From assembly GCA_020536535.1 (NCBI GenBank), contig JAHLWZ010000843.1, forward strand, positions 16,792 through 80,791: a DNA stretch of 64,000 nucleotides, in the 5' to 3' direction. The position numbers were made by a program, and so were the translations under genes. Of this stretch, positions 26,799 through 32,913 are shown one piece after another. Under the pieces are notes generated by a model. The model searched no databases and had not been told where the DNA came from. It was given only the letters and a program-made list of their open reading frames with translations. This DNA comes from Pelomyxa schiedti (taxonomy: Eukaryota; Protista; Evosea). Every line of letters starts with the position of its first letter. Within the stretch, counting starts at the first letter, position 1.

Positions 26799-29700
26799 AT
26801 GGACGAGCTGGACATGCTGCTGGCCGAATTGGATGCAACTGCACGCGGCTCGGGAGCGAGGGTGGTGCCCTTCCAGGCCGCCGAGTACGTTGCCGGCGAA
26901 GAAGGGCTCCCGCGCAGCAGGCAAGTTGTCTACGAATCCGCCCTAAGGAGCTCCCTCGAGTGCGAACCCCTCGCGGTACCCCGGCGCGCCAAGTTGGTGC
27001 ACGAAGGGGCTTGCGCCACTCAGGAGGATCTCGACCAGTGTGCGCAATTGGGCCAGTTGGACGTACCTTGCGACCAGCCTCGTCCTCAGCCTCAGCCTCA
27101 GCCTGAGTCTCAGTCTCTGACCCAGGATGGAGGGGAAGATAAAGAGATTTGCAATTTGGTATTGAGAATCAGGGCCCCATCTGCTGGCGGGGATCACCTG
27201 GAATCAAAAGAACGTGATAGTTCCTCTGGTTTTGATTCTGATCTGGATTCTGATAGCGTGGAATTACCACCAGATGGGGTGGAGGTGAATATCTGTGTGA
27301 GAGGATTTTTGGTTGAGACATCAGTGGTGTCTAGATTCCAAAATTCTACTGACAATGATTATTTGGATGCAGAGTTAGTGTTTCCTCTTCCAGAAGGTTT
27401 GTAAACTCCTTTTCTTTTTCTAAAAAATATCTATGAAATAAATCGAAGAGACCTGAAAATTTTCTCTCTAGGAGCCACTATTTGTGGGTATGGATTTGAT
27501 GTGAATGGAACTTTAGTGGATGCAGTCATTGTTGAGAAAGACAAGGGAAGAACAGTGTATGAACAAGAACTCAGAGAAAATCCTCAGGAAGGGGCTTCAC
27601 TTGTGGAAAACGTAGTGGGTAATGTATTTAGGACGAGGTAAGTGGTTTTACAGCTTGGTGTGATACTAAATTTCTCACAAGGATATCTTCCATTCCTAAG
27701 CACGGGTTTAGAGTTATAAAGGCCGGTTATAGTCCCCTTAATTATCAACTCTGCTCAGTCTTGCCTTATAGGTCGTCTTTGCCTCTGAACTGGAGAGAAT
27801 AGGTCAAAATATGAAATATTGCCTTCCATTAACAGTCTCTGCACTTCTGAGACTCTTTAAGCTTGATGTATGTGCACAATCACATAGTAACACAAAATAA
27901 ACGGAACTATTGAACTTAAGGTAACAGTTGAGTTTGAGAGAGAACTTTATGGATATCCACAACTTAGCAATGAAATGAAAGTTATGTCGGCCCCAGCAAC
28001 TTTTTCTGCTTCACAAATAGGTGCGACAAAGGAGCCAACAAAAATACTCAAATAATGTTAAAGGGAACCTTTCTTCTTATGCACTCCATGTTGTAAGGCA
28101 GTCTGTTATCCCATCTGGGATATCTTTTACGTTACCTATTAGTGCAGTCCCTCTTCCATCAATTCTTTTAGAAACTGATGAGAAACTCTCCTATTTTTGT
28201 ATCAGAGATAAAGGAATCCCTTCCAATCGTGCACATTCCAAAGTAGCTTCATTTCACTTGGCCACACTAAGCTATGTTCACAGACAAAACGAATAGGCGT
28301 ATTTTGGGACACTTCTGCAAGTGCAAAAAATTCTGCAGCAACGGACAAGTGAGAAAGCAATTTTTTTTGTCCCTTTCTCTACAGGTGTGCCAACACGTTC
28401 TTTAGTTTCTGTGAGGTAGTGTATAGAATCTGTGTCCAATTCGAACCTGAAGAAATAGCACTGTATTACTTTGCTTCATCTATTTCAGAAGTTAAAATAT
28501 TCACAGTGTGCTTCTTTTCAAAAAAAAAAAAAAATGGCCAAATCACCCACAGGCACCAATGCCACTGATAGTAGAACTTCAATATGCGGAATATACAGGC
28601 GGAACCAATTTGAGTTGTTTGTCATCAATTAAGGAGAGACTGTGTGATTTCTATCTGCTTTTCTCTGATGGCCTCTGTACATGGGGAGATCCTGTATTAA
28701 ATTTAGTAACCTACCTCTCTTTGATGCAAGATTAGAACCCCACAGTGAAACTTCCCAAGCCAGTACATACCTTTTGTAATGGAGATGGCCCAACAAATTT
28801 CCCTCTTCTAAAACTCATTGCCAAAACTACTGGTGGAACATTCTTTAATCTGAAAACGACTCCCACCCAGTAATGTTTTCATACATTGGTCCTTTAGGCT
28901 TACTCCCTCTTCCAAGGTCTATAGTTGATTCCCTTTCTCACGAGCCTCTGATGGTTCTCAGCTGGTCACTCCAAATTGGCAGGGTGAAAGTTGAAACCAA
29001 CAGGGATATCTATCCATTATGCCCATTTCCCATTTACGGCATGTTTGAGATACATGGAAAACTGGCAGATCATTCCTGCCCAAGTTAGCTTTGTTATTTA
29101 TGATGACTATGACTGACATTTTATTTAGCCACACTGGTTTTAAAGTTGGGCCATCTAACCAGTGGCCCCATAATTCAAAGAGAATATCGATTAGTACCGT
29201 CTCCAACATATTCTGGACTAAGTACCATGTAATCCATCATATAATGGAACTAAAGTGAATTAAGTTGCACGGCAATGGGCTATTAAAAAAGTTGATAGTT
29301 TACTTCTGGAATCACACAGTTCTCCAGTGCGCGACTTAGTACTGTCTTTGGGAAGGCAATACCAGTTAGTATACATTTATAAATTACGGCTGCGTAATCA
29401 TACAACTCAGTTTTGTTACACCAAACTCTTCCCTCCTTGTACTGAGTACCTTAGACCAAGTACCTTAATCATTTTCTTTTTCATCGATACCAAACAATGA
29501 CTAGTTCTTGAAACACCAAGTTGAGCCACCCCCTTGTCTCCCTGAAGTTTTACAGCAGTACTTGCTGAAGATTGACGGAAGAAAAGTACCATTTTCCACA
29601 TTAATTATGGCAGTAACTATAGGATTAGAGATTGGACCAGAAAAAACGTGAACAGAAGGCCGTATACATGAAGTCTTTATGGCACCAACAATGCTCACTA

Positions 29701-32700
29701 AGATCCAAACACTACGATGGTACCAAAGAGGTTATTTCTTTCTTTTTCAGCCAAAAATAACACTAGTAGCAACCTCTCTTATGCCATTTTGCTGATCTGA
29801 CGAAGCACGTGGATGTTTGGGGAGATCCAACTGTGGACTTCATTCCAGTTTCTCTTTCCCTCGAAATAGTTTCCTTATCCTTAAAATTTAAAGGAACCCA
29901 TTGTGGAAGAAGCGGAAATAATTCCTGAAGTTGAAATCAAAACTTGTATCGAAAAGTGCAGTGATTTTAAGGAATTTGTATTGTCCAGATATATGAGCCA
30001 ATTTCCAGAGATGCAACCCAACTCTAGTCAGGTCTGCAAACTGCTGAATGATCTTTATGAAGGTAATCACATACCTTTTTTTTTCCCTTCTAATGCAAGA
30101 AGGGAGGTTAAATCCATCTCTGGAAGAGCAAATGTTGAAAGAACATGGTAGTAACTATGCAGCATGGATAGATTTTTCACACTTCTGGGATCTTTATGTG
30201 TGGTGCAGCGACAATTGCTCCAATAAAGAGGTTCTCTCTCGTGTTGAGCTACTCAAGTATGATTGTAACTGTGCCGATGCTTTGTGCTGCAGAGACTCTT
30301 GCCGCTCCCTTTACCTATCCGAGGCAATGAGTATGCTGTGCCCTCTTCATGAAATCCGCCCAGCTAGAGAGTTTAGTTTTTTGTCCGCAAGACATAGCCG
30401 TGCTGTATTAGGAGTGAAAAAACACATTGTCTGTGCAGCCCTCGACAATGCATGGAACAACAGCCCTCAGAATGTCTTATCAGCACGTTGTGAATGTGAC
30501 CCAAGTCTTGAACAGGAACTATGCAAACCTAGCGATTCACTTACCGTTTTTCTTGAGCCTCCAAGAACTTGCATCACATTTGAGCTTGAAGACATTCGCG
30601 AGGTCACCGTTTCCAAGATTAAGGAGTTGCTTGAAGTTGAAGGGTTCCCAATAAAAGACCAACTTATTTCTTGGAATGGTACCCCCCTTGCAGACAGCAA
30701 GTATCTTCCTCTTCGTTCTTTTTCCCTCTAAAGAGGAAAAGATTTATTTTTGAATACAACTTTTCTCAAGGCTGCCCCCTTCAACTAACAATGAAAAAAT
30801 CCCACATGCCGTTGGCTGTCTTCCAAGATTCCCCTAAAATCCCCCTTTCCTGTGAGAGAGCTCTGTTTTCCATGCTATCCATTCCTCCACCAAGTAATAT
30901 CAAGATTTTTCGGGTTGGAAATGCCCTTATAAAGGTATCACTTCTTTCAGAGACACTCCCCAAGGAAACTTGTCTAAAAACCATTAATTTTCTATCTACA
31001 GAGTTATATACGTGGTGAACATCAAACCCCTTACGAATCACGGTTTTTTGAAGTTCTCTTCCAGGTTAATTGTCTGCCCGCTGCATATAACTGTTTCAAG
31101 TAAATCACTTGCATTAAAGATACCACCAGAATTTCCAGAAAAACCGCCCCTAATGAAGATGTGTACACCTGTAATACACCCTGACATAACACCTAATGGT
31201 GAAATCGGGGGAGACGTTTCCCAACTCTGTTTACATAATTGGAATCCATCTATTACTTGTATATCAGAAAACCTGCTCAAAAATTCTTGCATTAATCAAG
31301 GTGGTAGTTGTAAATATTCTCAGCACTCTCAGTTCGATGCTTTCTCAGGACCTTTCACCTGAGATTAGAGACAAAGCTTATATACACTGTCTAGAATTCG
31401 CCTTGACTGAAATTCCTCAACTTCAAGACATTGCACAATACACAGGAAGTACTGAGTTCTCCTCTTTTAATTAATTAACAGCTTATGACTTCTTCACAGA
31501 CTCGTTCAAGCAACTACGAACAGTAGTATCTTCATCAGAGATCGATCCTGCATTGAAGTCACATTATCGCAGCTCCGAGTCCCGACAAACTGTGGAATAC
31601 ACTTACCAAGTACTTCCTCGTTGGATTTTTTTTCCCGATTCTAAAATTCAAACAGACTTGCCACTCCACTGTCACCGATCCTGTCCAAATTCTACAACTA
31701 GCACTTCTTGTTGAGAGATTTCCCGATTTTGCCGTCAAGTATGATTTCTGTTGGGTAATAATCAACCATTCTCACCTGGTGCAACAAAAACACAGAGTGA
31801 TTAGCAACATCGCGGAACTGGAGCTTGACAATGCCCAGAATATTAGAGTGGCTGCAGCTTTTGCTGAGAAATTAACTCGATTCAAGTACTTTCCCTTATT
31901 TCCGGGGCTTTCCCACTTTTCGGTAAACCTACAATTAGGACTGCAGCTGACCTGTATGAAAGGGTGTTACAATTACGACCTGAAGAACCTCAGTCCTATC
32001 GGGACCTAGCCCTGTGCCTAGTTCAAGTAAACGAATCAGGAGGTACGCCAACTCCTCTCACAGAAATGATTCTAAGCAAGACCAAGAGAATTTGCAACGT
32101 GCATTGACTTTGTTGAACCGGGTTGTGGAAGGAGGTATACCGTGTACAACGAATATGTCCTTCCATTCAAAATGAACAGAATGGGATAGAAGATTTCAGC
32201 AGGTCGAATTAACAGCTGTGAATGTAAACTCCAGTCCCTCTAATTTTTTTTTTACCTGGAAAAATAGGATATGTACTTTATATGGAAGATTGTACAAGAG
32301 CTTGGTCTCTGTTCTGAAGTAAAACTCCCAATTTCCCCTACGTTTCTAGAGTGCAATCTTGATTTGGATATCAGGGTAGTTCTTACATGGTAGAGTTAAT
32401 ATTCCTTCTCTACAGTTTTCTTATGCTTTTTTAAATGCAGGAATAATTCCGCAGACGTGGTATACAACCTAATGCCTTGTATCAGAGTCAACTGACTAAT
32501 AACCAGGATTTGGTTGTTGTTGAACCAACGGGAGAGGAATGTTCTCCATTCCACAATCATACGAAGATAGGAGGTGAGTGAGCAATATTGCTATCAACAA
32601 AGCCAACAAAATAACCAAGGGGTTCTGAGTGAGGATTTCACAGAAGGCTTTGGCCCTGTCGTTTATTCGATATCTGATGCAGTGGAAGGCCAGTACGATT

Positions 32701-32913
32701 TCTATGCTTCAGTTTTTCATCCTGGAACATCATTGTACGTCCGCTCTCCTCTACAACAGCCTTAACATTACTTACAGGAACAAAGAGACTGTGTGTATTT
32801 CACACATCTACACGAATTTTGGCAGGGTGCTGGCCCAGCAATCATCTGTCAATATTGTTATTTTGCCTAATCCCAAGGAGAGGCAACTTTTGGCCTCTGT
32901 GTATGTTGGTTGA
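26799..32913 (+). CDS. VIT, vWA-like, ubiquitin-like, E2-like (no canonical Cys), TPR and DUF2135/YfaP-like protein
   Basis: [46 protein letters not shown]; vWA-like [21 protein letters not shown]; Ubl [26 protein letters not shown]2-like [39 protein letters not shown]-terminal [29 protein letters not shown]. Confidence 0.7.

Follow-up and report, generated by a model that had tools for sequence, protein, structure and literature searches.

The gene described here lies at positions 26799..32913 on the forward strand of a 64,000-nt stretch of Pelomyxa schiedti DNA (contig JAHLWZ010000843.1; the window), in surroundings of intron-rich eukaryote sequence. Its spliced model has 34 exons and 33 introns of 39-75 nt and encodes 1509 aa in a single open frame, with the only stop at the end (32911-32913). 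By profile the protein belongs to the VIT+DUF2135 scaffold family, and it carries an insert of about 470 aa between its VIT-vWA core and its TPR-DUF2135-type end (Table 1). The insert contains an E2 fold that has lost its catalytic cysteine, and in paralogues from the same species the same slot holds other host-protein modules.

Gene model and scaffold domains

RNA contigs from three runs of one sample support 25 of the 33 introns, 21 by joints listed directly, 3 by adjoining pieces and 1 by a position fixed by length. A public protein, P0001 ('YfaP family protein [Pelomyxa schiedti]', NCBI), is identical to residues 282-1509; the frame open over all 34 exons, this identity and the RNA joints uphold the single open reading frame of the original prediction. 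The public model reads through the insert and lacks the VIT domain, and the likely reason that it starts at Met282 is that a GC-AG intron was missed. Since record 5 of RNA contig X2 is spliced from exon 1 through to exon 6, across that intron, the longer start with VIT is the better model, and the truncated public gene model is thereby corrected. RNA cover starts at 27172, and the start codon lies outside it. A C>A difference at 28436, present in RNA runs X2 and X3 and not in DNA run X4, may be an allele, a strain difference or an error.

That the Ubl and E2 exons form a separate or nested gene, or that annotation or assembly produced the model as an artefact, is in our view highly improbable. 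Such a reading would fit the three stretches that no RNA contig bridges in the three runs (29452-30106, 30332-31019 and 31429-31562), and a stop codon arises if intron 23 is retained; missing RNA cover over parts of the insert was not counted as evidence of absence. The stretch 30106-30332 is covered by an RNA contig without a joint, and one spliced RNA contig extends over three E2 exons. Against a separate gene, all exons lie on one strand with canonical introns of usual size, the frame is never interrupted, the whole gene is found on one DNA contig (possibly the assembly's own source), the public model P0001 is identical, and the paralogue P0002 has the same pseudo-E2 in the same place. Between residues 1161 and 1359 there is no Met from which the TPR half could start by itself, which makes a separate E2 gene unlikely.

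Two parts of the protein are matched by a profile built from 104 homologues of 900-1150 aa: residues 152-736, with E 3.6e-102, and residues 1256-1491, with E 8e-74. The VIT domain is also recognised by Pfam (PF08487, 28.3 bits on exon 2, above the cut-off of 26.5), and the vWA domain by the family profile; Pfam VWA and DUF2135 (PF09906) give no match to the protein at E<=5. The C-terminal region aligns with DUF2135 relatives though it has diverged, and the TPR region has weak Pfam matches, below cut-off. The VIT/vWA and TPR-DUF2135 ends that had been predicted are thus retained, VIT by Pfam and both ends by the family profile, with the qualification that neither Pfam VWA nor PF09906 itself matches. 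The MIDAS (metal ion-dependent adhesion site) of the vWA domain is complete in this gene and in each of the 5 same-species paralogues. It is also complete in 10 of the 13 rows of the eukaryote group (described below) with an aligned vWA domain and in 232 of the 245 other rows. No signal peptide is predicted, in agreement with the first reading of the sequence: in a crude test the N-terminal hydropathy maximum is 0.99, compared with at least 2.0 in 206 of the 231 other full-length rows.

The insert and its ubiquitin-type modules

The E2 fold of the insert matches PF00179 with 60.5 bits (E 1.8e-16) and has UBE2T as its best PDB match (E 1.3e-10); the predicted E2 domain is therefore real, and its extent, about 30830-31510, is wider than the 31100-31340 first proposed. 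In the alignment to UBE2T, the catalytic Cys is replaced by Gly1134 (codon 31207-31209), the HPN motif reads HPD, and the RING-binding Phe is a Glu. The codon is GGG, and a spliced RNA contig over it shows no difference, indicating that the loss of the Cys is not a base error. Because the catalytic Cys, the HPN Asn and the RING-binding Phe are all gone, the pseudo-E2 is predicted to be unable to act as an active E2. UBE2V, TSG101 and AKTIP are pseudo-E2/UEV proteins, and the insert resembles them in having an E2 fold without the catalytic Cys; it differs from UEV proteins in retaining the C-terminal E2 helices (UBE2T 16-157 aligned, with the UEV Pfam family at just E 0.14) and in sitting inside a VIT-vWA scaffold.

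Upstream of the pseudo-E2, a Ubl domain is probable: PF00240 matches with 21.2 bits (E 2.5e-4), below its cut-off of 25.4, so that the Ubl assignment is kept with this limit. Gly-Gly is not present after the domain, which by its sequence is not a conjugatable modifier. The Cys-rich segment that had been noted is confirmed, with 8 Cys in 55 aa as against 2.0-2.4% Cys in the scaffold; it has no match in Pfam, the PDB (exon 19: E>1 only) or Atlas, and no RING profile matches it. For the helical segment, the EF-hand-like character first proposed is reduced to a lead, with Atlas scores of 0.83-0.85 (all <0.9), EF-hand-type families in 5 of the 9 rows shown and no Pfam match. A single-sequence AlphaFold2 model of the insert reaches a predicted local distance difference test score (pLDDT) of 36.5. 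Exon 19 (30103-30700, 598 nt), which contains the Cys-rich part together with most of the Ubl domain, is much longer than most exons and may be a later, intron-poor arrival.

It is very unlikely that the protein is an active ubiquitin enzyme, either an E2 or an E2/E3 hybrid with the TPR and vWA domains as substrate receptors. Tandem Cys-rich, Ubl and E2 units would suit such an enzyme, as would a Cys 7 residues downstream of the lost catalytic one, but this Cys is not aligned in P0002, a RING profile match is lacking, and the catalytic position is a Gly on which genome and RNA agree, beside HPD for HPN. The proposal that the scaffold had been rewired into the ubiquitin system is thus not borne out as far as an enzyme is concerned, given the three substitutions in the E2, the Ubl domain without GG, and paralogues with actin, DnaJ and FYVE in place of these modules.

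Table 1. Features of the gene and its neighbours in the window
Feature	Position	Strand	Basis
Whole gene, VIT-vWA-[insert]-TPR-DUF2135-type	26799..32913	+	spliced model, RNA, P0001 identity
Low-complexity acidic and Gln-Pro N-terminal extension, aa 1-151	26799..27251	+	sequence
VIT domain, about aa 152-270	27252..27790	+	PF08487 on exons 1-2, RNA join exon 1-exon 6
GC-AG intron	27722..27771	+	RNA joint 27719->27770 in X2 and X3, cut read 2 places over
vWA domain, complete MIDAS D402, S404, S406, T466, D487	28284..28930	+	family profile, motif columns
Hybrid strands and helices closing the ITIH-like core, to aa 736	28931..29725	+	family profile to position 601
Variable slot, aa 737-1205	29728..31522	+	gap in family profile
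Helical, possibly EF-hand-derived segment, aa 776-850	29930..30194	+	Atlas feature leads
Cys-rich segment, aa 851-965	30195..30539	+	12 Cys in 115 aa; RING-like spacing by eye only
Probable ubiquitin-like domain, without C-terminal GG, aa 966-1045	30540..30820	+	PF00240, sequence
Pseudo-E2, aa 1050-1202	30833..31513	+	PF00179, UBE2T alignment
TPR-type helical region, aa 1206-1379	31523..32333	+	TPR Pfam below cut-off, family profile, RNA-spliced from 31562
C-terminal DUF2135/YfaP-type beta domain and stop, aa 1380-1509	32334..32913	+	family profile, alignment A1
Neighbour genes: RCC1 repeats, HAD_SAK_1, HEAT/DUF4042, XRN exonuclease, LRR, SH3, myotubularin-like	7187-8018, 11495-12496, 23909-25241, 42114-44411, 45682-47604, 59068-60162, 62617-62991		

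Slot contents among relatives

A profile search of 1.84 billion representatives gave 2167 matches at E<=1e-30, 150 of them listed. A later homologue search was swamped, yielding 5 hits from 7989 candidates scored. Measured from anchor to anchor, the slot spans 539 aa in this gene, compared with a median of 176 (263 of 264 rows). The prediction of an exchangeable middle slot is borne out by at least five same-species paralogues, a minimum count, with four different cargo sets. Four further proteins bear the Pelomyxa schiedti label: P0002, with DnaJ and a pseudo-E2 that has the same Cys->Gly change; P0159 and P0209, with whole divergent actins (676-1040 and 678-1044) that have altered D-loops; and P0141, with a FYVE domain. 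The pseudo-E2s of this gene and P0002 are 25% identical (shuffle z 7.3) on N-scaffolds that are 31% identical, and the two actins are 44% identical on scaffolds that are 43-54% identical. Since the actins diverge at the rate of the scaffold, the actin fold appears to have been kept, and the slot cargo looks maintained.

The slot may instead be a permissive surface loop, in which pieces of highly expressed genes are tolerated and the scaffold does its job independently of them; we consider this quite unlikely. Slot lengths ranging from 108 to 687 aa over the 263 rows, slots that are low-complexity in most rows and the degeneration of all four modules in the present insert are what such a loop would allow, but the E2 fold retained in two paralogues so far apart in their N-scaffolds, and two full-length actins diverging in step with their scaffolds, argue against it.

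Among the rows labelled EukProt, the slot of P0256 holds actin residues 2-65 alone (E 1.2e-20), a piece which, being limited to these residues, cannot fold as actin; actin was captured on two separate branches of the tree. P0198 carries at residues 803-819, after an RGG-rich stretch within the slot, an internal copy of the histone H3 tail (13 of 15 residues identical) in which K4 and K9 are Arg and K14 is retained; with a 71-aa query the match has E 0.0038, with the whole protein E 0.23, and all 60 PDB matches listed are H3 or H3-type. We scanned 15 of the 17 eukaryote-group rows for cargo, omitting two near-copies, and found a recognised host-protein piece in 7, a weak synaptobrevin match in 1 and none in 7. 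The weak match, to a synaptobrevin (R-SNARE), lies at 645-694 of P0254 (E 0.017, below cut-off). A WASP-like acidic Trp tail seen by eye after long polyproline tracts (L019:1969-2598) had 0 matches in the PDB and was not counted.

In prokaryote-type rows the slots contain linkers, CarboxypepD_reg, Plug or GYF_2, so that the slot was variable in bacteria already; examples are L051:542-3979, P0206, P0217 and P0139, whose captured pieces are GYF_2, CarboxypepD_reg together with Plug, and an insert of about 380 aa without assignment. The names 'actin family' and 'non-muscle actin 6.2', given to P0159 and P0209, hide VIT-vWA-actin-TPR-DUF2135-type fusions, and the misleading names 'actin family' and 'TonB-dependent receptor' are here corrected. 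A motif at the start of the slot, His-Phe ... Trp-Gly-x-Pro (window 29770-29847), is common to this gene, P0002 and P0003 of Mastigamoeba and looks archamoeba-specific. The P0003 model lacks the whole vWA region, with a locus label of 9.2 kb, and is probably mis-annotated.

A possible bait-and-trap and the origin of the scaffold

In the PDB, the family profile matches ITIH4 best (9c4f, E 3.3e-26, aligned to ITIH4 25-593), and PARP4 is matched as well (E 1.6e-17). An AlphaFold2 model of the prokaryote-type relative P0004 (127 rows) is compact (predicted template-modelling score 0.89), with the slot, 609-681, as the only long stretch with pLDDT <50 and hence disordered, and a Foldseek search with this model finds ITIH1 (E 3.3e-22). 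According to the available part of PMC7793589, ITIH4 is cut in a variable region (633-713) that serves as bait, the protease is then held via the MIDAS, and trapping requires the MIDAS. Because the core aligns to ITIH4 up to 593 and the bait lies at 633-713, the slot corresponds to the ITIH4 bait position. The likeness thus consists of a VIT-hybrid-vWA core, a canonical MIDAS and a long variable region directly after the core, the disorder of this region being seen in the model of P0004. ITIH4 is secreted, its bait is Pro-rich and about 80 aa long, and its C-terminus is a different one, whereas the Pelomyxa protein has no signal peptide, a 470-aa insert with folded host-like domains and a TPR-DUF2135 end; by its missing signal peptide and its C-terminus it is not an ITIH heavy chain proper, and by analogy it may work like ITIH4.

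We tentatively favour the reading that the protein is a cytosolic bait-and-trap whose slot is loaded with host-protein decoys and which would catch enzymes of invading microbes. The observations behind it are the architecture, the lost catalytic residues of the E2, the intact MIDAS, the ITIH4 bait position of the slot and the varied cargo of the paralogues. A protease or modifying enzyme with which an invader attacks the ubiquitin system would engage or cut the insert, in which this paralogue would display a disabled ubiquitin-conjugation unit as bait; for the paralogues, the targets at stake would be actin, Hsp70 co-chaperones, phosphatidylinositol 3-phosphate (PI3P) membranes and histone tails. 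Cleavage or engagement of the insert would change the shape of the core, as in ITIH4, the metal-bound MIDAS would then hold the enzyme, and the TPR-DUF2135 half could serve either as a lid or as a signal. The bacterial ancestor would have been a trap that is exported and has a low-complexity loop as its bait. A bolder version, which we regard as doubtful, is that free-living amoebae, along with other protists, made a bacterial trap of the ITIH4 kind into a family of cytosolic immune proteins, in which each paralogue presents a disabled copy of a host target and clamps the invader's effector by the MIDAS; the tandem Cys-rich/Ubl/E2 unit would then mimic a ligase-E2-ubiquitin assembly, with actin, a J-domain, FYVE or the H3 tail playing this part elsewhere.

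A somewhat unlikely alternative is a cytosolic adaptor whose slot carries working targeting or partner-binding modules, the non-catalytic E2/Ubl unit docking on the host ubiquitin machinery and, elsewhere, the J-domain binding Hsp70, FYVE binding PI3P membranes and the actin-like domains binding the cytoskeleton. Dead E2 folds do act as adaptors in UEV proteins and AKTIP, and the HPD of the P0002 J-domain and the basic motif of the P0141 FYVE domain are kept, so that both look like working modules. In the available part of PMC10539598, Dictyostelium Vwa1, a VIT-vWA protein of the cytoplasm, cooperates with an F-box/RING ligase without being its substrate, which also suits an adaptor. The actin 2-65 fragment and the internal H3 tail in which Arg replaces K4 and K9 are hard to see as working modules, however, the cargo has no common pathway, and the slot stands at the ITIH4 bait position.

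Besides these two intact motifs, several points weigh against the decoy reading. Folded domains are poor protease baits, and genes for actin, histones, ubiquitin and chaperones are the likeliest donors of chance insertions. The pseudo-E2, in losing the RING-binding Phe, has lost a surface that a decoy might need; no host-protein piece was recognised in 8 of the 15 eukaryote-group slots, or in any of the 4 further eukaryote-like loci scanned, two of which have apparent spliceosomal introns; and the five paralogues found, a minimum, are not a large receptor family. ITIH4 is extracellular and only distantly related, with a different C-terminus. Finally, the 8 introns without RNA support all fall at the insert or inside it (from 29460 to 31499) and are those that link the insert to its flanks or cross its first half.

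Other known systems share parts of this plan. In plant NLRs with integrated decoys and in the bait region of alpha-2-macroglobulin, copies of host targets that vary and are often inactive sit on a constant scaffold; the scaffold here is unrelated, without NLR NTPase, LRR or thioester, and the host is unicellular. The decoy passage of PMC7159879 does not mention VIT. VWA5A/BCSC-1, Dictyostelium Vwa1 and PARP4 have a cytosolic VIT-vWA core in common with the Pelomyxa protein, and the available parts of the sources describe no TPR-DUF2135 end or cargo slot in them. Prokaryote-type proteins with VIT (PF08487) and DUF2135 (PF09906) are colinear over the whole scaffold and their slot is also variable, but they are mostly exported (206 of 231 rows), carry linkers or envelope-protein pieces in the slot and match Pfam DUF2135, unlike the five Pelomyxa proteins. 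Our literature search, which left subscription journals mostly outside, found no paper naming DUF2135, none on the family under YfaP by title, and nothing on VIT with tetratricopeptide or on inter-alpha-trypsin with bait region, bacterial homolog or protist.

Defence of the cytosol in single-celled eukaryotes that eat or house bacteria is largely open, and the family offers a concrete candidate, in which natural cargo swaps on a constant scaffold provide built-in controls. If the decoy reading were true, protists would have a decoy-based cell-autonomous defence that does without NLRs, and the list of cargo would amount to an inventory of the targets that protist parasites attack; even without it, the results give a first mechanistic handle on a family of more than 2000 sequence clusters.

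With relatives that are mostly prokaryote-type and have signal peptides, the scaffold is of bacterial type, as predicted, and may plausibly have come from bacteria. Family members are present in Mastigamoeba, Mastigella, Balamuthia and Anaeramoeba. In a FastTree phylogeny of 265 rows, all labelled eukaryote rows and four then-unlabelled ones, one of which is Balamuthia, form one group of 17 (0.987). A quick IQ-TREE run under a mixture model, with 15 eukaryote-group rows and 25 of the other 248, places the seven archamoeba rows in one group (SH-aLRT 100) and the other eukaryote-group rows in another (88), which joins the signal-less P0004 at 97. A single origin in eukaryotes is neither demonstrated nor rejected (approximately unbiased test, p-AU 0.225; the group was named after seeing the tree), and the trees are unrooted, with many rows of unusual composition. 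The lateral acquisition originally proposed remains plausible as an old event that would predate the archamoeba split, and a recent transfer is not supported. There was no viral copy among 23 candidate stretches in viral contigs, and no conserved neighbour across 18 bacterial loci beyond close relatives. In the window, the neighbours of the gene are ordinary eukaryote genes (Table 1).

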